From an uncultured virus (IMG/VR IMGVR_UViG_3300040946_000488) (lineage: Duplodnaviria; Heunggongvirae; Uroviricota; Caudoviricetes): 64,000 nt of DNA. The notes beneath the pieces are model-generated. The model was not told where the DNA came from. It saw only the letters and a program-made list of their open reading frames with translations, and did not search any database. Made by a program: the position numbers and the translations under genes. The DNA lies in IMG/VR virus record IMGVR_UViG_3300040946_000488; one strand, written 5' to 3'. Shown here piece by piece: positions 10,673 to 61,567 of this stretch; the first letter of the stretch is position 1, and every line of letters begins with the position of its first letter.

Positions 10673-11353
10673 ATGCAAGAACATGATGTCTTTCCCTGCA
10701 TGGCCGACAAGATCCCGGAGGGCTCCGTCGGCTCGGCCCGCGTCACGCACTTCACCGTCACCCGTGCCGACTCTTCGTTCGCGGCTTTGCGGTCCGTCGT
10801 CACGGGACGCCGGGCCGAGATCGTCAGCCCAGGCCGGTATGCCCGGCTGTCCATAGAGGACGAACTGGTGATGACCGACACCAACATGGAGAGGAGGACC
10901 AACCGTCCGTTGATCGAGCATGCCAGGGGACATGTCCTCGTCGGCGGGCTCGGGCTCGGGATGGTCGTGTTCGGCCTGCTCGCCAAGAAGCCCGCCATAC
11001 GCAGCCTGGTCGTCCTGGAAGTGAGCCCCGACGTCATAGCCTTGATCCAGCCTCACCTGCCCGTGGATGCCAGGCTCACGATCGTCCAGGTGGACGTGTT
11101 TGGTTGGGACGGTTGGCAAGACCATGCGGAGCATGGGTGGCAGGGGCAGGGGTGGCGGGGTCGAAGTCCCCGAAGAGGACTATCGAGGAAAGGCCCGCAA
11201 TTCGACACGATCTACTTCGACATCTGGCCTAGCATCCAGGCCAGCAACATCCCCTCGGCAGAGTTGTTGAGGGGACTCGCGGCCGGCCGGGTAGCACGGG
11301 GGGGATGGATGGGCGATTGGGACACGGCATACCGCAAACTGGAGCGCCGATGA
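10673..11353 (+). CDS. SAM-dependent methyltransferase (spermidine-synthase-like) with in-frame 63-bp insertion
   Basis: GHVLVGGLGLG, VVLEVSPDVI, FDTIYFDIWP. Confidence 0.8.
   Translation: MQEHDVFPCMADKIPEGSVGSARVTHFTVTRADSSFAALRSVVTGRRAEIVSPGRYARLSIEDELVMTDTNMERRTNRPLIEHARGHVLVGGLGLGMVVFGLLAKKPAIRSLVVLEVSPDVIALIQPHLPVDARLTIVQVDVFGWDGWQDHAEHGWQGQGWRGRSPRRGLSRKGPQFDTIYFDIWPSIQASNIPSAELLRGLAAGRVARGGWMGDWDTAYRKLERR
11117..11179 (+). repeat. 63-bp double-hairpin element, diverged copy H
   Basis: Aligns without gaps to 59016-59078; stem ccatgc-GGA-gcatgg. Confidence 0.8.
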
Positions 11354-11646
11354 CCGACGACGAAGATGTCACGATGGAACAGGAAGACCGCTACCGCATG
11401 TTGAGGATGAAGGAATGGTTCGTATTGGTGGGTTGCGTGGTAGCGATCTTGGGAATCCTGGTGGAGGCCAGGATCAGCGACAGCCGTGAGAAGTACCTGG
11501 AGTTCAAGTTGAAAGAAGCTGAGGCCAATGAGGCTGCCTTGCGGGCCGAGAACGATGCCTGCTGGAAGGACGTCAAGAGCAAGGTGCTGGAGGTCATCCG
11601 CTTCCGGTGCCCGGTCGTGGATGGGAATTCCAGGACCAAGCCATGA
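11350..11646 (+). CDS. membrane protein with coiled coil
   Basis: TM WFVLVGCVVAILGILV followed by heptads. Confidence 0.55.
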   Translation: MTDDEDVTMEQEDRYRMLRMKEWFVLVGCVVAILGILVEARISDSREKYLEFKLKEAEANEAALRAENDACWKDVKSKVLEVIRFRCPVVDGNSRTKP

Positions 11647-12017
11647 AGCTGATTTCCGGGACGAGATATGGCCTGCCGGACGACGATCGGGGTGCCTGCA
11701 AGCTCGACGATGGCGACACGGTCAAGGTGTCCCTGGAAGGTTTCTTCAAGGGCTGGATGTGCGTGGGAGTCCGCAAGGTCTCCTGCATCTTTTTCCAGCC
11801 GGTAGGTCCCGGGCCGTGGGTGTACTGCTCGAAAAGCAGATTCCTGGACATAGTCGAGTGGACGGAATTCCATGGGCATGATTTCCACACCGAATTCAAC
11901 CTGCAATACAATGCTGGAGGATTGATACCCCTCATGGATTCCGAATTGCCCTATCAGGAAGAACTGCGGAGGATGGCCGTCGTGGCGATTCACGGCCTCG
12001 CGAAAGGTTCGGCTTGA
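11643..12017 (+). CDS. hypothetical protein
   Basis: ATGA-coupled ORF. Confidence 0.55.
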   Translation: MKLISGTRYGLPDDDRGACKLDDGDTVKVSLEGFFKGWMCVGVRKVSCIFFQPVGPGPWVYCSKSRFLDIVEWTEFHGHDFHTEFNLQYNAGGLIPLMDSELPYQEELRRMAVVAIHGLAKGSA

Positions 12018-12053
12018 GGTGACGATCGAATCGTACAGGAAGGAGACCAAGGC

Positions 12054-15994: not shown

Positions 15995-17443
15995 ATGCCG
16001 ACCGCGTACATCGTCCTGGATCTCGGCTTCGGCGACGCCGGCAAGGGCTCCCTCGTGGACTATCTCGCGGCTCGCACGGGCGCCGATCCACCATCGGGTC
16101 TGGTCGTCCGTTTCAACGGGGGCGGCCAGGCGGCCCACAATGTCGTGACGCCTGATGGCCTGCACCATACCTTCGCGCAGTTCGGCAGTGCCACGTTCCT
16201 GGGGGCCAAGACATATCTGTCCCAGCCTTGCCTGTGGAATCCCATCGCCATGGAAGCCGAGGCGGAGGTGCTGGAAAAGACTCTGGGGAGGAAGATTGAT
16301 TTCCCCTATGTCGACAGTCTGGCGTCCGTGGTCACTCCCTGGCACCAGGCCATGGGGCGCCTGCGCGAGATCTCGCGGGGAACGGGACGACATGGCAGTT
16401 GCGGGGTCGGCATCGGAGAGGCCATGCTCGACCGTCAAGAGCATCCCTCGGAAAGCATCCACGCGAGAAACCTGAAGGGATGGGACGAAGACAACCTGTG
16501 CTACCACCTCATGAGGCTGGCAGATCGGAAACGTGGGGAGTGGGCCGATCTTGCCGATCGACTGAAGGTTTCCCCATCATCCCTGGGCAATTCTCCCGAC
16601 CTGTCCTTCCTCATGGACAAGCATGCTCCCCGCGCCGTGGCGGCCAGGCTCAGGCAGATCGCGGCCAGGACTTCCATGCCCGGCCTGGATCTCAGCTCCA
16701 AGACGCTCTTCGACAATGCAGGCGACGTCATCTTCGAGGGAGCCCAGGGCATCGGGATCGACGAGCGATATGGGTTCTTGCCGTTCGCCACCTGGAGCGA
16801 CTGCACGTCGTCCGGCGCCCGTCAGGTCCTGTCCGAGGTCGGGTGGATGGGAGACACCAAGACAATAGGTGTCTTGAGGGCCTACGGCGTCCGCCATGGA
16901 CCGGGGCCGTTCGTCACCGAGATCGTGGATCGTCACGGGAATGCAGATCGAGGACCACTGGCCTTTTTCAAAGATGCCCACAATGGGACAGGACCATGGC
17001 AGGGACCCATGCGCTATGGCTGGTTCGACGCCGTCCTGGCCCACTACACGATGAGGGCCGAGAAGGAAGCTGGATCTTTCTCGACAGCATTCAGAACATT
17101 CCATCCTGGGGTGGATTGCCTGGCGATCACCTGCGTCGACCAGGTGGACCGCATGCTGGGCAGCGGGTTGCCCTGGGAGATATGCGACGAATATGAGTGG
17201 CATGCAGGGCGAAGGAAAATAGGCCCCCTCGTCTTCGAGCCGGGCTGCTTCGCCACGCAGGAGGAGATGACGGAGGCACTCCAATGCGTCGTCCCCCTGT
17301 ATCGTCACGAGGGTCATGATTCTGAGGGACTCCTGGCTGCCATCGAGGGACTCTTGCGCTGTCCGATCGAGATCGTGTCGCACGGTCCCTCATGGAACGA
17401 CAAGGAATGGCGGAAAAGCCCGCCGACCACCATGAAAGATTGA
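15995..17443 (+). CDS. purA: divergent adenylosuccinate-synthetase-family protein
   Basis: LGFGDAGKG, RFNGGGQAAHNV, FEGAQG, RHGPGPFVTE, RYGWFD, SHGP. Confidence 0.85.
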   Translation: MPTAYIVLDLGFGDAGKGSLVDYLAARTGADPPSGLVVRFNGGGQAAHNVVTPDGLHHTFAQFGSATFLGAKTYLSQPCLWNPIAMEAEAEVLEKTLGRKIDFPYVDSLASVVTPWHQAMGRLREISRGTGRHGSCGVGIGEAMLDRQEHPSESIHARNLKGWDEDNLCYHLMRLADRKRGEWADLADRLKVSPSSLGNSPDLSFLMDKHAPRAVAARLRQIAARTSMPGLDLSSKTLFDNAGDVIFEGAQGIGIDERYGFLPFATWSDCTSSGARQVLSEVGWMGDTKTIGVLRAYGVRHGPGPFVTEIVDRHGNADRGPLAFFKDAHNGTGPWQGPMRYGWFDAVLAHYTMRAEKEAGSFSTAFRTFHPGVDCLAITCVDQVDRMLGSGLPWEICDEYEWHAGRRKIGPLVFEPGCFATQEEMTEALQCVVPLYRHEGHDSEGLLAAIEGLLRCPIEIVSHGPSWNDKEWRKSPPTTMKD

Positions 17444-26114: not shown

Positions 26115-26134
26115 CCATTCCTCTCTGCCGAGGA

Positions 26135-26518
26135 CTACAGTCCTGCCACGCTCACCACCGTCCCCCTCGGCCCTATCCTGGGATTGCTCACGGCCTCGAT
26201 GAACTTCTCCGTCACCATGCCTGGATCGTCAGCCCCCTCCGGCCCTCCCCGATCCCAGCCCGTGATCCAACCTCCCTCTATGAAGCCGCGCACGTCCAGG
26301 CGCCAAAATGGATTCCTGGCACAGTCTTCCATCCAGATCGATCTAGGAATCCAGTCGATTATCTGTTTCCTGCTCACGGGAGCCCAGTCAGCCAGCTTGT
26401 TGTCCCAATGGTACAGGACGATGCACGCGGCCACGTTCTCCAGCTCCGCCCTGCCCAGCGTGGCGATGCATGTGGCAGGAGACTGCACCCTGATCTGTCC
26501 GGGCTTCAGCCTTTCCAT
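26135..26518 (-). CDS. hypothetical protein
   Basis: AGGAGG RBS. Confidence 0.6.
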   Translation of the reverse strand: MERLKPGQIRVQSPATCIATLGRAELENVAACIVLYHWDNKLADWAPVSRKQIIDWIPRSIWMEDCARNPFWRLDVRGFIEGGWITGWDRGGPEGADDPGMVTEKFIEAVSNPRIGPRGTVVSVAGL

Positions 26519-27244: not shown

Positions 27245-27592
27245 TCATGTTTTCCCTTGGTCCCCGGCTTTCCTGGAAATCACGATCATGATCCCGGAAC
27301 CGTTCTTCAGTTCCAGGACGGGCCAGCCATCCTTGCCCTTGCTGCTCGGGCGATCTTTGTCCGCCAGGAGATTAAGTTCGGTCACCATGATGGCCAGGTG
27401 GCGTGACACTTCCACTGCTTCCTCGGCATCGCGGCACGTGATCTTGAAGAGCGCTCCTCCATTGAACTTGGAGCTGGCAATGGCCCTGGCAGCCGCCACC
27501 TTGCAGGGAGACTGGCCTGCCATGAACCTGTCGATCCAGGCGTCCGTGATGTCCATCGGGATCATCAGGTCTTGTGAGAATGAATCCATCAT
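27245..27592 (-). CDS. hypothetical protein
   Basis: Coupled ORF, high GC3. Confidence 0.55.
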   Translation of the reverse strand: MMDSFSQDLMIPMDITDAWIDRFMAGQSPCKVAAARAIASSKFNGGALFKITCRDAEEAVEVSRHLAIMVTELNLLADKDRPSSKGKDGWPVLELKNGSGIMIVISRKAGDQGKT

Positions 27593-27598
27593 CGAACC

Positions 27599-27931
27599 CT
27601 AACCATCGTATCCCCCTGCGGGGACTGCGGGCCTACCCACCCCACCCCCACCACCCGCGCTTCGCGCGCCCTTGCCAAAAACCTGGCCGTATGGACGATC
27701 AGTACCGGGAGCCGATTGAAGCTTCAATCCGAGCAATGCCAACCGGACCTTGACGGCGTCCGACGAATTGGATTCCAGCGTGGCAATCACCGGCCTGACG
27801 ATCTCATCCACCCGGGCATCCGCGAAAGCCATGATTAGTTCCTTCAAGGATCCCAGGCTCGCCATGTCGTGCTGCCTCAACTCGTATTCCAGCGCCTTCC
27901 AAGCTTCTTCTTTGGTATGGGGCATGGTCAA
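27599..27931 (-). CDS. hypothetical protein with in-frame element near C-terminus
   Basis: ...VFG|KGARSAGGGGGVGRPAVPAGG|YDG*. Confidence 0.65.
   Translation of the reverse strand: MTMPHTKEEAWKALEYELRQHDMASLGSLKELIMAFADARVDEIVRPVIATLESNSSDAVKVRLALLGLKLQSAPGTDRPYGQVFGKGARSAGGGGGVGRPAVPAGGYDG
27612..27674 (-). repeat. 63-bp element copy A
   Basis: ccccctgcggggactgcgggcc...cgcgcttcgcgcgcccttg. Confidence 0.95.
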
Positions 27932-28359
27932 TTTTCCTTTCCCCCTGCGGGGACTGCGGGCCTACCCACCCCACCTCCCCCACCCGCGCTTCGCGCGCCC
28001 TTGTCTCCCACTTTCGCGATCTGGGCAGCGCTTTCCCTCTTCTCCGCCATGATCCGGTCCGCCGCCATGATCATCTCCTTGGGCAGCAAGTAAGCTGCGC
28101 ACGTGGGACAGAGGGGACAGATCGCCATGCCAGGATTCGGCCCAGGGGTCACGCTGGTCATGATGCCAGGACGAAGATTGCAGACGGATGCGTACCATCC
28201 CGCCTGGCCCAGGGCATCGGTCAGGGCATCGGCATCGGCCACGCAGTCGAAAGACAGGACGAGCGAATTCTTGCAATTCGTCGGCTTGGCATCCACGGCC
28301 CCCACGCAGGCGATCCTGAGCGCGAAGGACAGCTTCTCGTCGTCATCGGCCATCGTCAT
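27928..28359 (-). CDS. hypothetical protein with in-frame element near C-terminus
   Basis: ...VGD|KGARSAGGGGGVGRPAVPAGG|KEN*; CPLCPTC. Confidence 0.65.
   Translation of the reverse strand: MTMADDDEKLSFALRIACVGAVDAKPTNCKNSLVLSFDCVADADALTDALGQAGWYASVCNLRPGIMTSVTPGPNPGMAICPLCPTCAAYLLPKEMIMAADRIMAEKRESAAQIAKVGDKGARSAGGGGGVGRPAVPAGGKEN
27941..28003 (-). repeat. 63-bp element copy B
   Basis: Near-identical to copy A. Confidence 0.95.
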
Positions 28360-28627
28360 CCTCCGATCCGGCCCTTGCCACGGACTCCATGAACGTGGCC
28401 ATGCTTCGCACGGCCTCGTCGTGCCTGCCACCCCCACCACCCCCACCCTCGCTTCGCTCGCCCTCGCTAGCCACGTCCGAGGAGGACGATGAGGGGGCAT
28501 GGGGAATCGCTGGGGGCTGGGACAGGTCCCGCAGCCGGGCATGGCGCCTCATCTCGTAGTCGAATATCGCCACTCCCTGATCCCGGTTCCCCGAGGCCAG
28601 CCGGATCCATGAATCTTCCCCGGTCAT
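28343..28627 (-). CDS. hypothetical protein with partial element
   Basis: Contains EGERSEGGGGGGGR. Confidence 0.5.
   Translation of the reverse strand: MTGEDSWIRLASGNRDQGVAIFDYEMRRHARLRDLSQPPAIPHAPSSSSSDVASEGERSEGGGGGGGRHDEAVRSMATFMESVARAGSEDDDGR
28423..28466 (-). repeat. truncated element copy C (hairpin 1 plus G tract)
   Basis: ccacccccaccacccccaccctcgcttcgctcgccctcg matches the unit at 38585. Confidence 0.85.
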
Positions 28628-38534: not shown

Positions 38535-38541
38535 GCTTCCC

Positions 38542-39495
38542 TCACCCTCCCGTGCCTTGTGCCTGTCCGCCAACGAGTCCCTTGCCCCCTTCGGGGACTG
38601 CGGGCCTACCACCCCCACCACCTCCACCCTCGCTTCGCTCGCCCTTGCCCCCTTCGGGGACTGCGGGCCTACCACCCCCACCACCTCCACCCTCGCTTCG
38701 CTCGCCCTTGCCCCCTTCGGGGACTGCGGGCCTACCACCCCCACCACCTCCACCCTCGCTTCGCTCGCCCTTGGCGACCTTCGCCCAGGTCTTCCGGTCG
38801 AAGCTCTCCCACACGCTGCCATCCAGTTCGTGTCGGTAGTAGGGAGGACATCCAGTCGATAGTTGGGAGATCGTCGAGACCCATAGTTCCCACAGGTGCA
38901 AGATCTGATCGTCGCGCCAGTCCCATACGCAGATCTGAGAGCGCAGGGCATCCAGCGGAGCCGCCAGCGTGGCATCCCTGTCCGCCAGGCTCTGGTAGAA
39001 ATGCGTCAGCATGCAGTCCTTGTTGTAGGTCTGCCCGGGGATGAAGGACAGCCGGCCGTTGAGCAGGTAGACATCCCCGTGCCCCGCGATGAGATCGCAG
39101 AACCAGTTAGCCCCCACCGCAGCGGGGGTGAGCAGGAGGATGTTCGCCCCCTTGGAGGACTCCAGGACGCAGCGCCTGGCCCAGGTCGCGATGTCGTTGA
39201 ACTCGCAGTTGAGCCAGAGCAGCCCCTTGCTACCATCCTCGCGCTTGAAGAGGGAATCAGACAGCATGGCCCAGGAATGATCGAAGGCATCCATGCCGAA
39301 CGCCTTCGTGTCCAGGGGCATGGGGCCTGCCGGCCCGGTGCAGGGCGCGAAGTAGTTGGGGGACTGGGCATTGCCGGCATGGGCAGCCAGATCGAAGGCG
39401 ATCGGGCCGAACCGCTTGGCCACGGCCGCCATGAAGTCGGCAGGTGTCTTGTAGTCCTGCTTGCTGTCCGATCCGGTGGAGATGCGGGCGCCCAT
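38542..39495 (-). CDS. phage N6-adenine methyltransferase-like (phage Dam family) with 3-unit element tail
   Basis: QDYKTP, FDLAA, WLNCEF in place of NPPF, NWF, GRLSF. Confidence 0.75.
   Translation of the reverse strand: MGARISTGSDSKQDYKTPADFMAAVAKRFGPIAFDLAAHAGNAQSPNYFAPCTGPAGPMPLDTKAFGMDAFDHSWAMLSDSLFKREDGSKGLLWLNCEFNDIATWARRCVLESSKGANILLLTPAAVGANWFCDLIAGHGDVYLLNGRLSFIPGQTYNKDCMLTHFYQSLADRDATLAAPLDALRSQICVWDWRDDQILHLWELWVSTISQLSTGCPPYYRHELDGSVWESFDRKTWAKVAKGERSEGGGGGGGRPAVPEGGKGERSEGGGGGGGRPAVPEGGKGERSEGGGGGGGRPAVPEGGKGLVGGQAQGTGG
38585..38773 (-). repeat. three tandem 63-bp elements (copy D)
   Basis: Exact 63-bp period, preceded by an extra CCCTTG. Confidence 0.95.
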
Positions 39496-39537: not shown

Positions 39538-39548
39538 GATCTAACTCG

Positions 39549-39896: not shown

Positions 39897-39904
39897 GTCC
39901 CAAC

Positions 39905-43811: not shown

Positions 43812-43827
43812 CAGCTTCCTTCCTTCG

Positions 43828-45531
43828 TCATCCGAAAAGTTCCTCCGCGGCCCGGACCTGCCCGCCTCCCGCGTCCACGATCAAGCGGCGGGACCGGAGG
43901 CGCTGCAGGTAGGTGTCGCGCGAGCTGCGCTTGTAGCCCGTAGCGATGTCGATGTCTTCCTTGTCGATGGCATTGGGATAGGCTGCCACGACGACGTCCA
44001 GGATCTTGAGTTCGCCCAGGGGCAATCTCGACCGCCAGTACTTGAGCAGATCGTCCCCCGTGGGCAATGGCTGGTACTGGTCCCCCAGTGCCTCCTTCCC
44101 TCCCTCGGTCGCCACGATCCGGCCGCTGGCCTCCTCGACATGCCCGGCCGCCTTGAGGCGCTGCAGGTAGGTGTCCCGCGAGCTACGCTTGTAGCCGGTC
44201 AAGACGCTGAGCTGCTCGCGGGTGACGCCCCCGGGATGCTGGGCGACAGCTGTCAGGATCTTGATCTCGCCGGGCATGAGGCGTGGACCTTCCTGGCGTG
44301 GGACGTTTTGACGTGGGGAAGGGACCGAAGGATCACGGATCGCCTGCCTGGCCTTGTCTCGCGAGGACAGGGCAGGCGGGAAGCGCCCCGCGATCTGGCT
44401 TCCGGGCGGGGCAGCTTCCACGAGATCTTTCAGGCCAATCGTCATCTCGACGATCATGGCAGCCAGTCGCGCTGCCGCCGACGAGGATTCCTCGGCCTTC
44501 TCCCTCATCTTCTTGGCGGAGGCTCGCCATCCCTCCGGGACGACGGGCACCTCGACCCTCACCTCCCTGGCAGGGCCTGACGGTCTCGCGTCGAGTTCCC
44601 GCTTCAGCCTCGCGACTTCTTCCCTGAGTCCCTTCTCCGTCTCGACCTTGACCTCAGCCTCCCTGGGCAGATCTGCCAGCTGGGGCAGCAGGTGCAGTAT
44701 CTTGCCCGTCGGGGGAGGCGGCGATGCTTGCCGCCTGCCCGCCTCGGGGTGCTCCGTCCGAACGTCCCCGATCGCGACGAGGGTGGGCTCCAGGACCAGG
44801 GCCCGGCCCATGGCGAAGAATTCCCCCGGGGGAAGGTTCTTCACCTGCTTGAAGAACTCTTGCTTGTCCGTCTTGGAGATGCCGAGGCATCCCGCCGCCC
44901 TCTCCCGATCGATGTCGATGAAGGTCTGGCCGATCATCACGTTCTTCAGCTCGGCCGCGAAGTCCTTGGACAGCTTCCCCAGCCGCTGGGTCGCGGCGAC
45001 GGTGCCATATCCCCGCTTGCGCCCCCTGGCCGCCAGATCGATCAAGGCACTCCTGCAGCGTTTTTCGCCTGAACTTTCGCTGGCCCCGTGCCCCGGCTCG
45101 GGCGCGAGCGTGTGTGCCTCGTCGACGTAGACGATCAGGTCACGCCACAGCTTCTTGGGAGCTTCCACCAGGGCCTGGATGAAGAGCGCCACCCAGGCCG
45201 GCCGGGTGGGAGGCGACATCTCGAACAGGTCGATGACCGCGCTCACCCCAAGCTCCAGCAGCCGATGCGCCAGCAGCGATGCCGAGCGGACGTCCGCGGG
45301 GGTGTCGCCATCCTTGCCCACCAGGATGAGATCGAACTTCTCCCGCAAGGTGGAGAACTCTCCCTCCGGATCGATGACGATCTGAGGGACCTTCCCGAAC
45401 GACTGCTCGATGAGCCTCCGCAACAGCCAGCTCTTGCCGCCCCCGCTGTTGGCCTGCACCAGCAGATTGGATCGCAAGACGACGTCCAGGTCGGCGTCGA
45501 ACCGGACGCCGTCCTCCGTGCGCTTGCCCAT
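43828..45531 (-). CDS. HerA/FtsK-like ATPase with tandem C-terminal winged helices
   Basis: ANSGGGKS, IDPEGEF, VDEAH, GRKRG, ATQR; TGYKRSSRDTYLQRL twice. Confidence 0.85.
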   Translation of the reverse strand: MGKRTEDGVRFDADLDVVLRSNLLVQANSGGGKSWLLRRLIEQSFGKVPQIVIDPEGEFSTLREKFDLILVGKDGDTPADVRSASLLAHRLLELGVSAVIDLFEMSPPTRPAWVALFIQALVEAPKKLWRDLIVYVDEAHTLAPEPGHGASESSGEKRCRSALIDLAARGRKRGYGTVAATQRLGKLSKDFAAELKNVMIGQTFIDIDRERAAGCLGISKTDKQEFFKQVKNLPPGEFFAMGRALVLEPTLVAIGDVRTEHPEAGRRQASPPPPTGKILHLLPQLADLPREAEVKVETEKGLREEVARLKRELDARPSGPAREVRVEVPVVPEGWRASAKKMREKAEESSSAAARLAAMIVEMTIGLKDLVEAAPPGSQIAGRFPPALSSRDKARQAIRDPSVPSPRQNVPRQEGPRLMPGEIKILTAVAQHPGGVTREQLSVLTGYKRSSRDTYLQRLKAAGHVEEASGRIVATEGGKEALGDQYQPLPTGDDLLKYWRSRLPLGELKILDVVVAAYPNAIDKEDIDIATGYKRSSRDTYLQRLRSRRLIVDAGGGQVRAAEELFG

Positions 45532-45663
45532 GCATACGGTCCTACTCACCCGGCCTTCCCTCCCTGAGGATCCCTCGCGTGCTTGAGAGTCCATCCCTCC
45601 GGGGGGATGTGCTTGAGCAGCCACATCCAGTGGGGATAGAGACGCATCTTCAGCACGGCGCCC

Positions 45664-46968
45664 TCAGATCCGCGCCTTGAATTGCTCGTGCATGGTGATG
45701 AGCGCGGGGTTCTGTGGGAACGCCTTGAGGGCTTCCTCGCACATGGCCATGGCCTCGTCACGGCGATCCAGCTTGTCCAGCGCGGAGGCGACCAGGATCT
45801 TGGACATGTTCTCGAACCCCGTCCCATTGTCGATGATCTGGAGGACGTCCTTGTTCTCGATCCCCATCCGGTAGGCCTCCACCGCTTCCTGCCACTTCTG
45901 CTCGTGGAACCGCGAGCGGCACAGGCGGAAGGCAGCCTTGGATCCCAGGTGCTCGGCCAGCGCCCGCTCGTACCATTCCGAGGCCAAGGGATACTCCTGC
46001 CGGGACTCGTGGATCTCCCCCCGCATGCAGCAGGCCCAGGCAATCTCCTCCTTCCACATGGACATCGTCAGGTACAGATCTATCACGGCGATCGCGAAAT
46101 CGGGCATGGTGGCCCGTGCCTCCATGGCCAGGTAGACCAGCGTCCGGGGCGACACCATCCAGTCGTTCGCCCGCGCCTCACGGTACAGGACCTTGAGGCA
46201 GCGTCCCGGCACCCGGACCCCCATGCCCGCGCTGTCCTTCATGTCCACCACCACGAGGTTGCCGTCGATCTGGGCCGTCTTGACCTGGCCCCTCAATACC
46301 TCGTGCGTGACGCCACACCATGAGATGTACGGCACGTTCTTGCAGAGGCGCTCCCGGAAGGAATCAGCCCGCGACTGGCCATCCAGCCCCATGTTGTAGA
46401 TGTAGCGAGATGCCGCCAGATCGGCCCCGGCACGCTCAAGCTCCACGCACAGGCCAGGTATGCACCAGGGATCTTGGACGACGTCGTCCGCATCCAGGAA
46501 CAGGATCCACTGCTTGGTGCAACGAGACCAGCCAAGATTGCGGGCCGCCGCCCAGTCCGCCAACAATGATTCTCCGGTGAACGGACCCTCGAAAGTCTCC
46601 CCCACCAGGGGCTTGCCCATCGCGTAGGTCTCGGGGACGTCCAGCAGGTACAGTTCAGGATGATTGGTGGCCGTCACCTCGATGATGTCGAGGCCGAAGC
46701 CGGAACCCCTGAATTCCGCATACTCTCTCAGTATTGCGATGGTCCGGTCGGAGCAATCGTTGGCCACCGCCACGATCTCGTTGATGTAGGGACCGATGTT
46801 GTCCAGCAGGCGCCCGACGCAGCTCTCGCCGTTCTTCACCATCAGGTGCAGGGATACGGTCGGGCGCTCGCCGGGCGCGAAGTCCTCGGGACGCCGGAGC
46901 GTAACCTTGCGGAAGAGGGGATTGTTGTCGCCCTCGGAAGCGATCGAATACTGTGCCTCGTCCCTCAT
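45664..46968 (-). CDS. GT2 glycosyltransferase with TPR C-terminus, paralog of 24197-25312
   Basis: HPELY, DWAAARN, LDADD, THE; TPRs. Confidence 0.85.
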   Translation of the reverse strand: MRDEAQYSIASEGDNNPLFRKVTLRRPEDFAPGERPTVSLHLMVKNGESCVGRLLDNIGPYINEIVAVANDCSDRTIAILREYAEFRGSGFGLDIIEVTATNHPELYLLDVPETYAMGKPLVGETFEGPFTGESLLADWAAARNLGWSRCTKQWILFLDADDVVQDPWCIPGLCVELERAGADLAASRYIYNMGLDGQSRADSFRERLCKNVPYISWCGVTHEVLRGQVKTAQIDGNLVVVDMKDSAGMGVRVPGRCLKVLYREARANDWMVSPRTLVYLAMEARATMPDFAIAVIDLYLTMSMWKEEIAWACCMRGEIHESRQEYPLASEWYERALAEHLGSKAAFRLCRSRFHEQKWQEAVEAYRMGIENKDVLQIIDNGTGFENMSKILVASALDKLDRRDEAMAMCEEALKAFPQNPALITMHEQFKARI

Positions 46969-50240: not shown

Positions 50241-50900
50241 TCAGATCCCCTGTCCCAGCCCGTCCAGCTTGACGAGGCTGGACCTCACCGCCGCCACGAT
50301 GCCGGCATGGACCTGCTCGATGGCCCCCCAGGCCGGTACCACCATCCATCCCGGCTGTCCCACCGCCATCGACTTCCACAGGCCCAGGTACCGATCGCGC
50401 AGGCGGCGCTGCTTGGGCAGATCCCTCTCGTACCTGTCGCCGGCCACCGTGGTCCTGGAGGCAGCCTCTTCCGGCGAGCAGTCCAGGAGGATGTTCAGGT
50501 CGGCCCTGGGCAGGCACTCATGGGCATCGTGCAGCCACCCCTCGTCCAGGCCGTCGTCGCTGCCATAGACGTAGGCCGACTGCCACCAGCGGCCACAGAC
50601 CACGATCACCCCGTCCCGCAGCGCCTGGAGGATGCGACCGGCCGCCGCGTACTTGTCCACCGTCTGGACGCACTGGAAGACCAGGGGATCGCAATGGCAC
50701 ACATGGGTATCCTTCGTCAGGTGCCCGACCGCGATCTTGCCGTGCAGGTGATCGTGGATCACCTTGCCGGTCGCCGAGCCGTAGTCCGGGAACGTGAACG
50801 CCCTCGCCTTGAATCCGCACTTGACGAGGAATTCCACTAATAGCTTGACCTGGGTGGACTTGCCGAAGCGATCGCACCCTTCCAGCACGATGAAGTGCAT
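50241..50900 (-). CDS. tmk: thymidylate kinase
   Basis: FIVLEGCDRFGKSTQ, FPDY, RWWQS, DRYE. Confidence 0.9.
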   Translation of the reverse strand: MHFIVLEGCDRFGKSTQVKLLVEFLVKCGFKARAFTFPDYGSATGKVIHDHLHGKIAVGHLTKDTHVCHCDPLVFQCVQTVDKYAAAGRILQALRDGVIVVCGRWWQSAYVYGSDDGLDEGWLHDAHECLPRADLNILLDCSPEEAASRTTVAGDRYERDLPKQRRLRDRYLGLWKSMAVGQPGWMVVPAWGAIEQVHAGIVAAVRSSLVKLDGLGQGI

Positions 50901-51427
50901 CAGGTTCTCTCCCCAGCGACATGGGCATGCCAGATGTCACCTGGTTTCGCGCTGTCCGGGGAGGGCTCCCATTCCATGTGGACCGATCCAAGCGCCAATC
51001 CCATCTCTCTCAAGCGACCGTTCACTTCCCTCAAGGATTTCCGGCCGAAGTTCTTGAGCCTCAACAGATCGGTCTGGGTGAACATGATCAGATCGCCAAC
51101 CCGGCGGATGGGTTTCCCCAGGGCATAGCAAAAGCAATTGGCCGATCTGACGGATAGTTCCAGGTCGTCCACTTGCTTGTCCAGCAATCCACGATCGACG
51201 AGCCGATCTTCCAGGCCCGTGACCGGCTCGAAAGGATTCGACGGGCACGTGCTTGGCGACATGATAGGGACCTGCACGCGCACCAGGCGTCCTAGATCCC
51301 TCCTCATGGTCCCGAGTTCGTTCTCGACGAGGACCAGGTGGTCGATGCGTATCTCCCGGATCTTCTCCTCCAGGGCCGTGATGCGAGCCAACATCTCGTC
51401 AGTGATTTTCTTGCCATCTTCGCTCAT
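50900..51427 (-). CDS. stand-alone RNA polymerase alpha C-terminal-domain protein
   Basis: VDDLELSVRSANC...GDL...DLLRLKNFGRKSLREV. Confidence 0.9.
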   Translation of the reverse strand: MSEDGKKITDEMLARITALEEKIREIRIDHLVLVENELGTMRRDLGRLVRVQVPIMSPSTCPSNPFEPVTGLEDRLVDRGLLDKQVDDLELSVRSANCFCYALGKPIRRVGDLIMFTQTDLLRLKNFGRKSLREVNGRLREMGLALGSVHMEWEPSPDSAKPGDIWHAHVAGERT

Positions 51428-52354: not shown

Positions 52355-53521
52355 TCACTCCTGCCTCAATGGTCGTCCCGGGCGGACGAAGCCTGAATCG
52401 TCGGGCTCGCCGGGCTCGCCGGGCTCGCCGGGATCTCCATCCTCTCCCTCTCCAGGGCCTCCATCTGGGCCAGCCACCTCGGCACCCTCCCCAGTCCCTG
52501 GCAGGGCCAGGTCGGGCCACTCGTCTTCTCCCGATCCTGGTCCGGATCTTGGTTCCTGCCCCAGGACCACGGGCTTCGCCGGCCTGGGCCTGGCGAAGGC
52601 TTTCCTGGCAGGCTTCGGGGCCGGCATCGAGGCCAATGCCCTCTCCTCCCGTCCCCGCCCCGCCGCCAGGTGGATCATGCGGGCCACGGCGATCTCGTCG
52701 GCCGACATCCCCGCCTGCAGGGCCAGCATCATGCTGGCGTCCGCCTGACGATCGTCCCGGGCGGCAGCCTGCAGGGCGATGAACTCGCGCCCGGCCCGCC
52801 TTACCTGCACGCAGATGTCCTCGGGCTCGCCGGCCACGCAGTGCTTGTGCAGTCGCAGGGGCCAGACGGTCTCCAGCGATCGCCAGAATCCTGACATGGC
52901 GCCGACGTGCGCCGACAGGGGCCAGGGCTTCCAGCAACGGCCTCCACCAGCCACGGAATTTTCGCTCCATGCCCGGGCCAGGACCACCGACACCAGGTGC
53001 CCACGTGGAGTGTACGCCGTGAACAGGGGCTCCAGCAATGCGTCCCAGGACAGCAACGCCACGTCGGCCAGTGCCCTCGCCGCGGCCCCGATCGCCGACT
53101 TGTCGCCATCCCTCGAAGATGGGAGGCCGAGGCCGGCCACGGAGGGGAGATCCAGGGAACCATCCGGCTGCGCCACGAGGAGGAACTCGTAGGAACCGTT
53201 CATCTCGGCGGGAGCGGGCACCATGCGCTCGACCTCGGGGGCATCGGATGGGACATCCGCCCTCGGCACCCTGCGACGGCGGCAGACGAGCGCATACACC
53301 CTGGATATCGCCGGATCATTCGGAGAGCCCGGCGGCACCTCGCCTGCCATCTGCCTCCAGGCCCACTGCGCGAGGCTGGAGCAGGTCTCGCAGATCCCGA
53401 CGTCCTGCTCGCCCTTCCGGAACAGGAAAGCCTGTCCCGTCCCGTGGCAGATGATGCACGACATGCCAGGAGGAGCGTCGATGGCGTAGGTGAAGCCCGG
53501 CAACGATCGCTCGAACGTCAT
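52355..53521 (-). CDS. hypothetical protein, Zn ribbon plus acidic Pro/Gly tail
   Basis: CIIC...CETC; ATGA coupling. Confidence 0.6.
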   Translation of the reverse strand: MTFERSLPGFTYAIDAPPGMSCIICHGTGQAFLFRKGEQDVGICETCSSLAQWAWRQMAGEVPPGSPNDPAISRVYALVCRRRRVPRADVPSDAPEVERMVPAPAEMNGSYEFLLVAQPDGSLDLPSVAGLGLPSSRDGDKSAIGAAARALADVALLSWDALLEPLFTAYTPRGHLVSVVLARAWSENSVAGGGRCWKPWPLSAHVGAMSGFWRSLETVWPLRLHKHCVAGEPEDICVQVRRAGREFIALQAAARDDRQADASMMLALQAGMSADEIAVARMIHLAAGRGREERALASMPAPKPARKAFARPRPAKPVVLGQEPRSGPGSGEDEWPDLALPGTGEGAEVAGPDGGPGEGEDGDPGEPGEPGEPDDSGFVRPGRPLRQE

Positions 53522-54648
53522 GGGACCATACCAGGAGCCTTCGAGATCCCTTGCGGAGACAAGGCAACCACGATTTCTTGGCGCTCGATCATGAGGGCTG
53601 CTATCTGGCTGTCGATCTGATCGAGCCTCCAGCAGCGCTGCCTGATGGCCAGGACCTCCTCCGGATCGTTCATGTCGGGTGCCTTGTCGTCGAGGGCCAC
53701 GCCCTCGATCTTGCCGCCGGCTCCGCCGAGCCGACCGTCTCCCGCGGCATATTCTGCCGTGCCATCGACTCCACGAATCCCTGGGGTTCGCGCAATCTCC
53801 TTGTCCGGGAACATCCCCGGGGAGCGATGGCAATGCCTGTTGAGGCGGGCAGAAGGGGTGGTCAAGATCTTCTCGGTCGTCCAGCCAGCCTTGATCCTTG
53901 AGTAGATCATGACCGGACTCCATCCCAACTTCTTGGCCCATCCACAGACAGACATGGTCAAGCCATCGTGAGTCAGGGTCTTGCCCTTGCCGCGGGGAAC
54001 ATAGAGGAGATGGGACTCCTCCTTGCCCGGATCGAGACTTGGGGATCCTGTTGGCACTGCCTCGTCCACGATGCCTCCTTCCCTCATGATGTCTCCCAGG
54101 CGATCGCAGGCCCTGTGGATGATCTGGCAGACGCGGGACTCCGTGACCCCGAGCCCATCCCCGATTTCCTGCATCGAGACGCCTCCAAGACAGTACGCCT
54201 GGAGGATCTGGCGATCGGAAGGATCCAGCCTCTCAAGCGACGAGGCTCCCATCTCGAACCTCTCGGCCCGGATGGCCTCGTCCTCTGGATTGTTACCTGA
54301 GGGGACATGCTCAGCATCCTCCATGGGGACCGGGTACAATGCTGCCCAGGGGACTTGCTCCAGGACGCTCGTCCCCGAGGCCTTCATTTTCTTGCGATCG
54401 TCCCGTGAGACGAGATCGCGTCTCCTCAACTCGTCGAGCATGGCGCCCCTCACCCTCAGGTAGGCGTACTGCCACAGGGTCGTGCCCTGGGAAGGATCGT
54501 GCCTCTCGTGACAGGTCCACAGGGCAAGGTTCCCGACGGCGACGAGATCTTCCAATGCAGGCTTCCCTCCCCGCCCACGGGTGATGGCACCAGCCATCCT
54601 CCAGATCCGATCTTGGTGCTCGCGGAAGACGGCGTCGAACGGGGACAT
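53518..54648 (-). CDS. FliA/WhiG-like sigma factor fused to a phage DNA-binding domain
   Basis: YAYLRVRGAMLDELRRRD; SMQEIGDGLGVTESRVCQI; WAKKLG...RIKAGW. Confidence 0.85.
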   Translation of the reverse strand: MSPFDAVFREHQDRIWRMAGAITRGRGGKPALEDLVAVGNLALWTCHERHDPSQGTTLWQYAYLRVRGAMLDELRRRDLVSRDDRKKMKASGTSVLEQVPWAALYPVPMEDAEHVPSGNNPEDEAIRAERFEMGASSLERLDPSDRQILQAYCLGGVSMQEIGDGLGVTESRVCQIIHRACDRLGDIMREGGIVDEAVPTGSPSLDPGKEESHLLYVPRGKGKTLTHDGLTMSVCGWAKKLGWSPVMIYSRIKAGWTTEKILTTPSARLNRHCHRSPGMFPDKEIARTPGIRGVDGTAEYAAGDGRLGGAGGKIEGVALDDKAPDMNDPEEVLAIRQRCWRLDQIDSQIAALMIERQEIVVALSPQGISKAPGMVP

Positions 54649-55349: not shown

Positions 55350-55745
55350 CTACCACTCGCTGTCGCTGCGATCGCGACGGCCATGGCGCTCGCCCCCACT
55401 CCCGCGATCGCCCCACCCATGCCCGCCGCCGTTGTCTCCCCCACTCCTGCCACGCGATCCTCCCCCGCCCCCTCCCCCACCACCCCCACGCCCCGGCCTC
55501 TCCTCGGCCTCGGACGCCCGCAATGGCCGGCCGTCGAGCATGTGGCCGTTGATGTTCTCGATGGCCTCGGCAGCAGCCTGGGGGGTCTCGAACTCCACGA
55601 AGGCGAATCCACGAGACTTCCCGGTCTCGCGATCGGCGATCACCTTGGCCGACACGAACGAATAGCCCTCGGCCTTCAGCAGGTCGGCCAGATCGTCTGT
55701 CGTGGTGGCCCAAGGCAAGTTTCCCAAGTACATCCTGTTTCCCAT
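55350..55745 (-). CDS. RRM RNA-binding protein with Gly-rich tail
   Basis: RNP2 MYLGNL, RNP1 RGFAFVEF. Confidence 0.95.
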   Translation of the reverse strand: MGNRMYLGNLPWATTTDDLADLLKAEGYSFVSAKVIADRETGKSRGFAFVEFETPQAAAEAIENINGHMLDGRPLRASEAEERPGRGGGGGGGGGGSRGRSGGDNGGGHGWGDRGSGGERHGRRDRSDSEW

Positions 55746-58484: not shown

Positions 58485-58802
58485 TCAGGCAGCCTTGGCA
58501 TCCGGGCGAGCAGGGATCTGGCCTGGTATCTGGCGGATGAGCCTGGCCAGGGCCGCGGGAGAGAATGGATCTTCCCGCGCCTTGCGCCGACGATCGCCCC
58601 CCTGGAAATGATCCTTCAGCAACTCGTACAGTGCCCGTGCCAGGGTCTCCAGGGTGATGTCCCGTCCCGTGCGATCATCCTCGACCGTCACGTCCGCTCC
58701 CTTCGCCACGATCTTGGCCACCTGCACCATCGACACGTAGCTTGACTCGTCGACGTCGTACAGCTTCCGGTTCGAGAACTTCTTGAATTTCCGCAGGGGC
58801 AT
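58485..58802 (-). CDS. PhaR/PhbF-like N-terminal DNA-binding domain protein
   Basis: KKFSNRKLYD..S.YV...V.DxxTGxDIT..TL. Confidence 0.85.
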   Translation of the reverse strand: MPLRKFKKFSNRKLYDVDESSYVSMVQVAKIVAKGADVTVEDDRTGRDITLETLARALYELLKDHFQGGDRRRKAREDPFSPAALARLIRQIPGQIPARPDAKAA

Positions 58803-58812
58803 GGGCTCCTTC

Positions 58813-59316
58813 CTATTGTACCAGGAATTTTCGGCCTGGGCCTGCCAGCCTCCGCTGGTGTCTCTCACGGGTCTTCCTCAAGATCACGTGAGCTATGTCG
58901 GCGACGTGCTCAGGCCCGAAGACCACCTTATCGCCCTTGTGGACCGAAGTGTCAAGGGCGCGCGAAGCGCGGGTGGTAGGTGCAGGGTGGGCAGGCCCGT
59001 AGTCCCCGCAGGGGGCAAGGGCGCGCGAAGCGCGGGTGGCAGGGGCAGGGTGGGCAGGCCCGCAGTCCCCGCAGGGGGCAAGGGGTTCAGACTCGACAAT
59101 TCCCAAGAAAGGCAAGCATCCCTCCTCGTCATTTCGCGTGAGGACCCTGGCCCACAGTCGTTCTCCGACGCCCTCGAAGACCAGCTTCACCAGATCGCCG
59201 GGCCACAGATCTTCCCTCTCCTCCCTGGTAGGTATCTCGAACGAACTCGATTCCTTGTTCCGTCCCTCGACGTTGGCCAGCTCGGCAGTTCCATGCATCT
59301 TGTTCTTCGGCATCAT
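58813..59316 (-). CDS. DUF2314-like protein with two in-frame elements
   Basis: GDLVKLVF..ERLW.RV...FLGIVESEP...GDKVVFGPEHVAD. Confidence 0.7.
   Translation of the reverse strand: MMPKNKMHGTAELANVEGRNKESSSFEIPTREEREDLWPGDLVKLVFEGVGERLWARVLTRNDEEGCLPFLGIVESEPLAPCGDCGPAHPAPATRASRALAPCGDYGPAHPAPTTRASRALDTSVHKGDKVVFGPEHVADIAHVILRKTRERHQRRLAGPGRKFLVQ
58953..59078 (+). repeat. two tandem 63-bp elements (copy F), antisense to host gene
   Basis: 63-bp period, followed by an extra CAAGGG. Confidence 0.95.
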
Positions 59317-60134
59317 CCCCTCACGGTCGGCTGGGACTGCATGAGTTCCAGCAATTCCTTGATCGATATCGCCAGCATCCTGCAGTCCTTGATGTTGGCG
59401 CGGGCCACGTCGCCATGGCCGAGCTTGAAATTGGACTCGTCGGCAAACACCGTCAGGGCAGCGATCAACTGTCTCAGGTGCAGCAGGATCGTGTCGACGG
59501 GCACGCCGACAGCCCGATCGGGAGCGAAACCGTGCCAGTTCGGGTCGAGGGACGGGCCGGGCATGCCTGGGATGCCGTGCTTGGATCCCTGGATCAACTC
59601 GATCTCTTCCTTCAGGTTCACTGCCAGTATGCGACAATTCCGCGCCACCGTTCGCATCGCATCGGATCCGACAGGCGAGATCTCAAGCCCATGGAGGACC
59701 ATCCATCGACCAACCTCGTCCGCCACCGACTCCAGCACCGCGGCGAGCTGTGCCTCGTGCTGCATGACGGTCGCGTTGACAGCATTCACCTTGATGTCCG
59801 CCACGATGCCGTGCGCGCTCACCGTGTACCGCTCGGGGAGGGTCTGTGAGGCAGCCAGGCGCTCGCTGAGCCCGGGGAGGGGCGGCAGGTCGGGCAGGCG
59901 AGCAAGACTAGATGACCGAGATGACGGGAGCGATGGGGGATCATACGTCATGGCGACCGGGGGCGAAGATGCCGATTGCCGCCTGCCGCAGGACCAGCAG
60001 GATGCCGATCCACGATCCACCGGACGCTTGCACACGGAACAGGCCAACTGCGAGGTATAGCCGTTGTGGCAGAAGACGCAGACGTTGAGCCCGTCTTCCA
60101 CCCCATGTCCGCACGCCAGGCAGTACAGGCCCAT
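59313..60134 (-). CDS. double Zn-ribbon protein with duplicated helical domain
   Basis: Four CxxC; ADE...CR(I/M)LA..(L/I)KE..EL.Q twice. Confidence 0.7.
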   Translation of the reverse strand: MGLYCLACGHGVEDGLNVCVFCHNGYTSQLACSVCKRPVDRGSASCWSCGRRQSASSPPVAMTYDPPSLPSSRSSSLARLPDLPPLPGLSERLAASQTLPERYTVSAHGIVADIKVNAVNATVMQHEAQLAAVLESVADEVGRWMVLHGLEISPVGSDAMRTVARNCRILAVNLKEEIELIQGSKHGIPGMPGPSLDPNWHGFAPDRAVGVPVDTILLHLRQLIAALTVFADESNFKLGHGDVARANIKDCRMLAISIKELLELMQSQPTVRG

Positions 60135-60650
60135 CAGGCATGCTCCTGGCACAGGATGGAAGCCAGCCAGAACCCGGATCCGACGAGGGCGACCAGATCT
60201 GCCGAGGTCGCCAGGACGGACTTGCCCATGGGCAAGGCCCACAGGGCGGCAAGGCACGCGGCAGCCAGGAAAAGCTTCATTTCCTGGTCACCCTCACCTC
60301 ATATTCATGGCCGTCCATGCCGATGAACTTCGTCGAGGTCTCGGGCCGGCTCGACTATGATGCCCAGTGCCCCGCCACGTAATGTGCGGCACTCCACGAC
60401 GTCCAGTCTGTATATAATGCCCCGTTCCGTCTTGACTGCGGACCATCTAGGATCTTCGGGATCCGGTAGATGGAAGGGTCCTATGTCATGTCTCCTGGCC
60501 ACGTTCACCGTGGAAAGAGGATTTCCCCCTGGTGGCACCATCTCGGATCCTGGATCCATTCCGGGATCCTCCTTGCCCTTCCCGAAAAGCCACGAGATGA
60601 AGTCCCTGATGCCCATGTCAGTCAATATCCTGGTCCAATCATCATCATAT

Positions 60651-61520
60651 TCATGTCCGTCTACGCCGACGAACCTCGTTGATGATGAACCCCTCGGGCG
60701 TGAAGAGGCCGTCGGACATCCCCTCCACCCCGCCCGACGACGCCAGCAAGGTCACCGCCAGCGACGGGATGTCGACATTGCACTGTTCCAGGATGATGTC
60801 GCAAGCATGCTCGTAGTCGTGATCGAGCAACTCCAGGAGGCGCTGGCCAGGGTTGGAGAGATCTTGGACCATGTATCTTTGCAATGCCTTCACCAGGTCG
60901 AAGGCCGGGATGACCTCCTTGCGCACGTTGGTGGCCAGGGGCTTCAGTCCGGACTCCTGCCACATCTCCCAGAACCGTGGATCGCCGTGCTGGGCCAGGG
61001 ACCTGATCTCTTCCCTGGTCTCGGCCACCAGCCATGGTCCCAGGTCTGCCAGGTCGGCATGCTTCGACAACGCCTCGTAGATCACCTTGGAGTCCAGATC
61101 CGACATGTCGTCGAGGATTCCGTCGGCCTGGATGGACTCCAGGATGGCCGTCATGCATTGCTTCTCTTCTTCCGCCCGCGTGACGACGACGAATGCCCGG
61201 CCGCTGCCATCCTGGGCCTCCACGACCACCCGGCCTTCGCGTTCCAGGGAGCCTGACAAGGCCGTGAATACGAGATTGAACTCCCTCGCCACCGCGGCGA
61301 GGGCTCCCTCGATGGTCAGTGGGACAGGCTTCACGGTGCTATCTTCTATCATGACTGGCCTCTTCAGCAATGCCCCCAGCGACGGTCCGGGCCGGAGCGC
61401 TGACAGGGACTTCATTGTATGTGAGGACGGGACGAGCCTCGTCTCGACCTCCCGGACGATCAAGCCTGGCCATACCCGTTTCACTGCCCCCTGCGGGGAC
61501 GGCGGGCCTGCCCACCCCAT
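60651..61520 (-). CDS. hypothetical acidic protein (start uncertain)
   Basis: High GC3; predicted ATG lies inside element G. Confidence 0.6.
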   Translation of the reverse strand: MGWAGPPSPQGAVKRVWPGLIVREVETRLVPSSHTMKSLSALRPGPSLGALLKRPVMIEDSTVKPVPLTIEGALAAVAREFNLVFTALSGSLEREGRVVVEAQDGSGRAFVVVTRAEEEKQCMTAILESIQADGILDDMSDLDSKVIYEALSKHADLADLGPWLVAETREEIRSLAQHGDPRFWEMWQESGLKPLATNVRKEVIPAFDLVKALQRYMVQDLSNPGQRLLELLDHDYEHACDIILEQCNVDIPSLAVTLLASSGGVEGMSDGLFTPEGFIINEVRRRRRT

Positions 61521-61567
61521 CCCTGCCCCACGCGCTTCGCGAGCTTTGCTCGCTCCGCGCGCCCTTG
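61487..61567 (-). repeat. 81-bp element variant (copy G)
   Basis: 63-bp unit plus 18 bp in the hairpin-1 region. Confidence 0.85.

Follow-up and report, generated by a model that had tools for sequence, protein, structure and literature searches.

Selfish DNA that lies in frame within genes is best known from Rickettsia and from mitochondria. Double-hairpin elements are known from the mitochondria of Allomyces, the Rickettsia palindromic elements (RPEs) have to our knowledge no known mobilising enzyme, and the miniature elements derived from IS200/IS605 bear hairpins near both ends, make no target duplication and are lost precisely. Here we describe a 63-nt hairpin-bearing repeat unit of an uncultured Caudoviricetes virus (IMG/VR record IMGVR_UViG_3300040946_000488), of which one stretch of 64,000 nt, hereafter the window, was analysed. 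The copies of this unit, lettered A to H along the window (Table 1), lie in unrelated genes, are gained or lost on near-identical alleles as exact 63-nt units or multiples of them, change in number within tandem arrays and occupy new sites in close relatives. We are highly confident that they are selfish mobile insertions, and the explanation that accounts best for all observations, a family of non-autonomous selfish mini-elements in a large phage genome, is likely to be correct. By analogy, the unit may represent a known kind of selfish DNA in a new type of host, a phage; in the literature, which was searched in full text, no in-frame palindromic or hairpin element was found for phage genomes. 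The original prediction from the sequence, of a mobile mini-element that adds 21-aa modules to phage proteins, is borne out by empty alleles, new sites and copy-number changes in relatives.

The closest analogues are the RPEs and the GC-cluster and double-hairpin elements of mitochondria. Like the RPEs as they are described in PMC10969869, the phage copies are hairpin-forming repeats that lie in frame within unrelated protein genes and are compatible with the fold of the host protein. In-frame insertion into unrelated genes is seen in copies A, F and G, all internal to their proteins and matched by clean gaps of 21 or 42 aa in homologues. RPEs measure ~100-150 bp and have one conserved peptide per family, whereas the phage unit measures 63 nt (81 nt in a variant), is read in four frames and has no conserved peptide; the host of RPEs is an intracellular bacterium, whereas the present element resides in a phage genome. 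The analogy with Rickettsia, which the original prediction had drawn, is apt for behaviour and not for family membership. The GC42 clusters of yeast, in the account given by PMC4478555, are likewise very small hairpin elements, rich in G+C, that strains gain and lose rapidly. Mitochondrial GC clusters are also described there as merging and shuffling their units, which may be compared with copy D and with the 18-nt nested hairpin of copy H, and as being exchanged by homologous recombination of conserved flanks, while the mechanism of their transposition is given as unresolved. A putative AG target-site duplication is reported for GC42 (PMC4478555), whereas copies A and F show none. The genome around the mitochondrial elements is AT-rich, and the phage copies lie in and between the genes of a gene-dense genome of 60% G+C. 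Small size, high G+C content, multiple hairpins, gain and loss at the strain level and merging of units make a likeness of behaviour, for which no common descent is claimed.

The repeat unit and its structure

Copies were counted by repeat finding and with a profile that was built from 8 copies and scanned over the window. This census gave 10 full units and 1 partial or hybrid unit at 8 loci, with insert lengths of 63, 81, 126 and 189 nt, as had been predicted. The 27-nt 3' part and the 24-nt 5' part of the unit have 9 matches each in the window (at most 3 mismatches) and 0 in 100 dinucleotide-preserving shuffles of it. Pairwise, 50-61 of 63 positions are common to the copies other than A and H, and 45-53 to H and these copies; B and G2, which lie in opposite orientations, are identical at 58/63 positions. 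Copy D is a composite, in which the 5' ~42 nt (hairpin 1 and the G-run) resemble those of copy E and are followed by a different mini-hairpin, GCGAAGC, that replaces hairpin 2; its tail codes EAVRS, which is the start of a second-site insertion in two homologues of the host of copy A (P0008 and P0012). A weak profile match at 26129-26168 (E 0.59) was dismissed as an element copy. In a metagenome contig from a relative (L001, 4483-4528 versus window 28418-28466), four positions in the G-run of copy D have changed from G to A over ~25 nt, between flanks that are ~96% identical, which suggests decay or hypermutability of this G-run.

The unit starts with CAAG, followed by hairpin 1 with its GCGNAGC mini-hairpin, a G-run, and C-runs with a G5 (hairpin 2, of the form C4-GNA-G4). 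Hairpin 1 has a stem of 5-6 bp with a C-G closing pair around a GNA triloop, its GCGNAGC core is invariant in 9/9 aligned copies, and it is predicted by folding of single-stranded DNA (ssDNA) in 5 of the 7 folded copies, the exceptions being D and E. The diverged copy A retains hairpin 1 through 3 compensatory pairs with changes on both sides, and the 18-nt insertion of copy H is predicted by ssDNA folding to form a nested stem within it. A C4-GNA-G4 hairpin can form in the 3' part, where alternative pairings with the G-run also exist and the predicted pairing differs between copies. For the double hairpin originally described, hairpin 1 is thus well supported, and a hairpin in the 3' part of the unit is plausible. 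Published work describes sequences of the types GCGNAGC and C-GNA-G as DNA mini-hairpins of exceptional stability (PMC13037366, PMC3201870).

Such a structure could also be a recruited nucleic-acid signal whose location in coding sequence is incidental, such as a site for ssDNA initiation or for primase, an N4-type hairpin promoter, a G-quadruplex switch or a stabiliser of RNA. Mini-hairpin motifs, CCGAAGG among them, are found at priming sites of phages and plasmids and at N4 early promoters in the examples of PMC13037366, a canonical G-quadruplex motif fits the G-run in 6/10 full copies, and at 7/8 loci the surrounding genes have the G-rich strand as their sense strand, a bias that is not significant with 8 loci. 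Nevertheless, presence or copy number varies among near-identical phages at A, B, E, F and G, one locus is inverted, the positions in protein loops have no regular relation to gene starts or ends, and the window has no Rfam match at gathering thresholds, all of which make a recruited signal improbable.

Filled and empty alleles in relatives

The insertions were compared with homologues of three host proteins, for which 18 of 56 homologues of the A host, 15 of 44 of the G host and the 3 of the F host were aligned. The insert is missing from 12/18, 13/15 and 2/3 of these, respectively, with clean gaps of 21, 42 and 21 aa, a result that answers in favour of insertion the question, raised with the original prediction, whether homologues carry the segments as ancestral sequence. 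At the A site, five near-identical proteins bear the 21 aa, while in P0011 (a cluster comprising 12 sequences) exactly residues 154-174 are missing and the only other difference is S176L. P0008 has copy A and a second 21-aa insertion after residue 74, 80 residues upstream, and P0012 (71% identical in the alignment) has this second-site insertion together with a doubled A copy, whereas 11/11 more distant homologues are without either insertion. The A-site copies of the window and of P0012 both code AEHGW, a hairpin-1 peptide specific to A, and are therefore orthologous. The A site may thus hold either an old insertion that was precisely lost in P0011 or one that was transferred between alleles by recombination of its flanks.

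At the G site, P0057 is filled and P0059, P0060 and P0061 are exactly 42 aa shorter. The empty P0060 and the filled P0057 have the same two substitutions, T10S and V132A, and consequently the filled and empty forms occur on one haplotype; P0060 also shows exactly the rejoined sequence SEP|LDT that had been predicted for removal of the insert. P0058 (77% identical) carries at this site two 27-aa units, which correspond to 81-nt variants with an 18-nt addition unlike that of copy H, and 10/10 distant homologues are empty. For the F host, P0101 is filled, and P0102 and P0103 (61% and 59% identical in the alignment) are exactly 21 aa shorter. The empty F allele is also found in a Logan contig of sequencing run X5, where 41936 is joined to 42001 with one letter between (net -63 nt, depth 5.6) and LGPGVW is coded, as in P0102, instead of the predicted LGP|DVW. 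In the empty alleles of all three loci, a substitution is found at most 6 nt from the junction, namely S176L at A, one base at F and P78S at G; the last is present in two of three empty G clusters and absent from the third, P0060. These substitutions could be a footprint, a trace of co-conversion or chance.

Other changes in the runs and contigs concern copy number and new sites. In run X3, a joint going back 63 nt at B is a tandem duplication (depth 43.7). The spanning contigs L001 and L003 have two units at locus E, where L017 and the window have three; contig L010 has a 30-nt in-frame deletion at the 3' junction of this locus. In runs X3, X5 and X7, a joint connects 41998, at the 5' end of an element, with 45659 on opposite strands, with 45-69 letters on the shorter side, and the contigs of these three runs pass 45659 into element sequence in + orientation. 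Relatives thus probably have an extra element copy at 45659, reconstructed from joints rather than read through, where the site is empty in the window. Another element flank in the runs of relatives matches nothing in the window. For the host of the E array, the best-scoring stretches of 150 listed homologues (of 939) were considered and 10 homologues were aligned. None of these 150 stretches extends past query residue 215, while the array occupies residues 241-303, which places the array in a lineage-specific tail; the 10 aligned homologues have nothing that matches the array, and no empty allele with the same tail was found among them.

Table 1. Element copies, homology-backed host genes and related features of the window
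Feature	Position	Strand	Description
Copy A	11117-11179	+	63 nt; most diverged copy, 39-47 of 63 positions common with other copies
Copy B	27612-27674	-	63 nt; frame b
Copy C	27941-28003	-	63 nt; frame b; 61 of 63 positions as in B
Copy D	~28398-28466	-	Partial or hybrid; frame b
Copies E1-E3	38585-38773	-	Three identical 63-nt units; frame b
Copy F	41938-42000	-	63 nt; frame c
Copies G1-G2	58953-59078	+	Two units, 60 of 63 positions common; antisense to host gene; 42 aa
Copy H	61487-61567	-	81-nt variant; 18-nt hairpin inserted within hairpin 1
Host of A	10658..11353	+	Class-I, spermidine-synthase-like methyltransferase; 231 aa (226 aa from second Met); phrog_15480, E 5e-27; 56 homologues
Host of E	38542..39495	-	Dam-family DNA methyltransferase; PF05869, E 2.6e-11; phrog_111; 939 matches; lineage-specific C-terminal extension
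Host of G	58813..59316	-	Conserved small protein; 167 aa with insert, 125 aa without; 44 homologues
Candidate empty site	45657..45663	.	4 nt past stop codon 45664-45666; probable extra inverted copy there in runs X3, X5 and X7
IS1595-family transposase	32502-33563	+	NF033547, E 1e-54; opposite strand within minus-strand phage gene run

The element was also followed outside the window. The stretch 36001-46000 is present in 20 peat or wetland runs from 18 studies, of which two runs may be the source sample. The hairpin-2 pattern occurs at 19 metagenome loci, of which 16 are 90-100% identical to the window and have copies at the same sites, and three have no alignment of at least 100 nt to it; in total, 17/19 belong to this phage population or to a close relative, and one (L012) has an element copy at a locus that is absent from the window. 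L013 and L018 were rejected as relatives, as they match hairpin 2 alone and are unrelated. In L013, an AT-rich contig, a 20-nt sequence identical to hairpin 2 occurs twice (213-232, 303-324) beside a tRNA-like end, and we judge it to be coincidental or a separate small repeat. The hairpin-2 pattern has 0 matches in IMG/VR and in the genomes of 185,579 prokaryote species, the 5' pattern has 0 matches in IMG/VR, and 22 kb of the window, compared by megablast with 50,697 phage records, matched none of them. A single 5'-pattern match, intergenic in a Pigmentiphaga genome, was taken as chance, being without G-run and hairpin 2. In addition, large phages in IMG/VR carry the family of the A-host methyltransferase at 80 loci, on contigs as long as 512 kb and in no case with the element, and the family of the G host was not found in IMG/VR contigs. 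Relatives with host proteins 71-77% identical in the alignments bear variant copies (P0012, P0058), and from these sequence searches the element family looks confined to one phage lineage.

The element is not an assembly artefact, as copies are present at the same sites in 16 metagenome loci and the stretch around them occurs in 20 runs; the concern about artefacts that had been voiced with the original prediction is thereby met. Although the inserted segments are Gly-rich and predicted to be disordered, as ancestral low-complexity linkers might be, and although Logan contigs break at the copies, as they might at artefacts, across unrelated proteins one DNA unit is read in four frames, three of them sense and one antisense, distant homologues are without the segments, and 16 independent metagenome contigs and the 20 runs bear the element. 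Ancestral linkers or artefacts are thus an extremely improbable source of these segments.

Host genes, translation and phage context

Because five or six of the six frames are open in every copy, location within an open reading frame (ORF) is weak evidence of a genic site. The predicted host gene is backed by homology at A, E, F and G only, so that at least 4/8 loci are intragenic; for these, the original claim that all copies lie inside ORFs stands. It is not supported for copy H, which is not demonstrably coding: the ORF assigned to it (61481-62383, frame a) overlaps a real PolB-exonuclease-like gene in another frame. Copy H lies past the stop of this gene (61624) and ahead of the body of the following one, its candidate readings being a 92-codon ORF at 61339-61617 (frame b) and the 5' end of 60651-61613 (frame c), and it is either intergenic or located at the N-terminus of that following gene, with an ambiguous coding status. 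In the 99% identical contig L004, a 1-nt deletion at window position 61182, within the ORF 60651-61520, is either a frameshift variant or a sequencing error.

Copy F is internal to a protein of 145-177 aa (3 homologues), 36 codons ahead of the stop, and the E array ends 14 codons ahead of the stop of its host gene, with the next gene beginning 8 nt past that stop. Copies B and C each end 4 codons ahead of a stop, B in a 110-codon ORF and C in ORF 27928-28359 (or -28542), just upstream of the ribosome-binding site of the next gene; copy D lies 20 codons ahead of the stop of ORF 28343-28627. The ORFs around B, C and D are small, have no family match and are backed by codon-usage score and tight gene packing alone. 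The two small genes with copies B and C (window 27574-28341) are missing as a block from L001, in which the start of the C-host gene is fused to gene 27245-27592; this indel of a module has no elements at its edges.

AlphaFold2 models of the A and G hosts were made with family alignments. The model of the A host has a mean predicted local distance difference test (pLDDT) score of 80 and a predicted template modelling (pTM) score of 0.78, and its residues 156-176, which nearly coincide with the insert (residues 154-174), form the only internal segment with pLDDT <50, without secondary structure and between the strands 140-144 and 182-187. In the model of the G host (mean pLDDT 63), residues 81-121 have pLDDT <50 and lie between the strands 70-74 and 130-133. 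The models thus suggest that internal copies occupy disordered surface loops, and other copies appear to lie in C-terminal tails.

As had been predicted, four reading frames are in use: copy A is read in frame a, copies B to E are read in frame b, F is read in frame c (as is H, if its long ORF is real) and G is read in antisense. That several frames are in use speaks against selection on a peptide. A TAG lies in frame a of B, C, E, F and G1, where this is never the host frame, and copy A, which uses frame a, is without it; all antisense frames of the copies are open. The original argument from the TAG and copy H is not supported as it was worded, since the TAG had been ascribed to A and D as well and H, rather than A, had been named as the user of that frame without it. 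All lengths are multiples of three, including not only the 63, 81, 126 and 189 nt of the window but also the 27-aa units of P0058 and the 30-nt deletion of L010. These lengths and the avoidance of TAG argue that the copies are translated rather than skipped, and from the sequence evidence we consider it probable that the inserts are translated and not removed. Host products would then gain linkers without a function of their own, rich in Gly, Arg and Trp where the unit is read in sense and in Pro, Ala and Cys where it is read in antisense.

The element might instead be kept in DNA and left untranslated, through its being cut from mRNA or bypassed by the ribosome, for which mitochondrial 'byp' GC elements and gene 60 of T4 provide examples, and the stable hairpins that flank the unit would suit such a process. 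A skipped element, however, would need neither a length divisible by three nor avoidance of TAG, both of which are observed at the intragenic copies, down to the missing TAG of copy A in frame a, and the ORFs of B, C, D and E stay open across the unit and end 4-20 codons beyond it. We therefore regard it as very improbable that the element escapes translation. Also in frame within an ORF (52355-53521), a 9-nt tandem repeat at 52389-52443 (-), with five overlapping 28-nt matches at 9-nt spacing, is unrelated to the element.

The window has a G+C content of 57-66%, and its genes lie on the + strand up to ~20 kb and thereafter mostly on the - strand. It codes two proteins with sigma-factor domains, an RNA-polymerase alpha C-terminal-domain protein, an RRM protein, a thymidylate kinase, an orotidine monophosphate (OMP) decarboxylase fusion, a PurA/PurZ-like enzyme, an RNase H, an endolysin-like protein and a HerA/terminase-like ATPase, together with two HNH-domain proteins and an IS1595-family transposase; virion genes were not found in the window. 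A contig of 133,573 nt codes a protein identical to the host of copy A, and the window probably belongs to a phage-like virus of peat and wetland microbes with a large genome of at least 133 kb. The adenylosuccinate-synthetase-like protein at 15995-17443 (+) matches PHROG 1211 (PurZ-type) with E 6.5e-60 and scores below the NCBIfam cut-offs of PurA and of PurZ alike. Cargo that is unusual in a phage, all on the - strand, includes the RNA-polymerase alpha C-terminal-domain protein (50900-51427), a sigma factor/HNH-like fusion (53518-54648), the RRM RNA-binding protein (55350-55745) and a PhaR-like (PHB_acc_N) DNA-binding protein (58485-58868), and an HD-domain nucleotide phosphohydrolase is coded at 62526-63200 (-). 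A tRNA-His of 95 nt called by ARAGORN at 45678-45772 (+) is probably false, as it lies inside a minus-strand glycosyltransferase/TPR gene.

Junctions, mobilisation and implications

Terminal inverted repeats are absent from the element, whose ends, CAAGG... and ...GGGGG, are not mutually complementary, and comparison of filled and empty alleles leaves a possible target duplication of at most 1 nt at A and F. At G, and at E by its flank, a repeat of 6-7 nt (CAAGGG) is possible, which repeats from a partial unit or from slippage explain equally. E and G, the two tandem arrays, are each followed by CAAGGG, the start of the unit, and CAAGGGG is present in the empty G site, in keeping with slippage as the way in which arrays grow and are cleanly lost, or with microhomology at insertion.

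These flanks bear on the possibility that no dedicated enzyme is involved, in which case copies would be made by template-switching or slippage at stable hairpins, lost by slippage and spread by recombination among co-infecting phages. The direct repeats of 6-7 nt at E and G are apt for slippage, the E units are 100% identical, the phage population is mosaic with many indels, and no mobilising enzyme was found among the predicted proteins of the window. At A and F, however, the junction repeats measure at most 1 nt and clean empty alleles exist all the same, and near-identical copies (61/63 positions for B and C, 58/63 for B and G2) lie in unrelated genes in both orientations, which requires a copy-and-insert step that microhomology does not explain. 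We therefore consider an origin without a dedicated enzyme unlikely, though it is the main alternative.

The element was further compared with known classes of small mobile DNA. [quoted passage not shown] A tetranucleotide of the form G[T/C][A/G]G, such as tags REP sequences in the description given by PMC3733652, occurs only in B, C, E and F, as a GTAG that precedes the 3' palindromic part. IS200/IS605-type elements abut a fixed target of 4-5 nt, whereas the eight flanks of the phage copies differ on both sides; also unlike these elements, the two hairpins of the unit are dissimilar and in direct order, and the window has no Y1/HUH gene. REP sequences and REPINs are extragenic, have a GTAG or CGTC tag beside a palindrome of 20-40 nt and go with a RAYT gene, whereas at least 4/8 loci of the present element are intragenic, and the window has no RAYT gene. 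With MITEs (transposable elements of the miniature inverted-repeat kind), as portrayed in PMC10969869, the unit has in common that it is small, non-autonomous, multicopy and capable of in-frame fusions; it differs in the absence of terminal inverted repeats and of a target-site duplication at A or F, and its 63 nt are below the usual size of MITEs.

The original prediction had recognised no mobilising enzyme in the window. Mobile-type genes are in fact present, namely those of the IS1595-family DDE transposase and the two HNH-domain proteins, yet nothing ties them to the element. The IS1595 family has terminal inverted repeats and an 8-bp duplication; the transposase was rejected as the mobiliser, as the element has neither. 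Rearrangements are seen around the transposase gene, where 34601 is joined to 26122 in L008, L009, L014 and L019 and 32569-33441 is skipped in run X4.

For the non-autonomous mini-element that we favour, we propose that movement would take place at the DNA level, in ssDNA in which the GNA mini-hairpins fold, and would be carried out by an enzyme supplied in trans and coded outside the window or by the host. This route through ssDNA hairpins and a trans-acting enzyme is put forward tentatively, its chances being somewhat below even. Insertion would make no target duplication and use no fixed target, homologous recombination of the flanks would spread a copy at a given site between phages, and slippage between flanking CAAGGG sequences would let arrays grow and shrink. 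Copies may persist in genes because their length is a multiple of three (63, or 81 as 63 + 18) and five or six of their frames are free of stops, while selection would purge those that fall in structured parts of a protein or place the TAG of frame a in the host frame.

Several observations weigh against a mini-element of this kind. The loci B, C, D, E and H yielded no empty alleles, with Logan contigs stopping at the copies from B to E, the empty F allele differs by one junction base from the window minus 63 nt, and at A and G the change may be a gain or a precise loss. On the side of structure, the E copies break two pairs of hairpin 1 (G-A/A-G), the covariation comes from one diverged copy (A), and hairpin 2 never covaries; the fold z-scores, which range from +0.64 to -2.27, are weak, as G+C-rich sequence of this kind also folds once shuffled. 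Finally, the 8 flanks have no common motif or target on either side, unlike those of IS200/IS605-type elements, and none of the 100-102 proteins predicted for the window matched a Y1/HUH transposase or a reverse transcriptase.

The occurrence of filled and empty alleles in the same peat metagenomes provides a natural system for insertion, clean loss and fitness cost, and the invariant GCGNAGC mini-hairpin points toward a testable ssDNA mechanism. In practice, the copies break short-read assemblies and inflate predicted proteins by 21-63 aa of low-complexity sequence, and alleles of one gene may pass for different proteins. A more speculative proposal, to which we attach slightly less weight than to the ssDNA route alone, is that this mobile family is specialised for phage coding sequence, combining lengths divisible by three (with two independent 18-nt hairpin additions that lead to 81 nt) and five or six stop-free frames with a so far undescribed, scar-free and target-independent mechanism that reads GNA mini-hairpins in the ssDNA of replicating phage. 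If true, gain and loss of protein loops, together with the homology dispersed by the copies, would drive protein-length polymorphism and mosaic recombination in phage populations.

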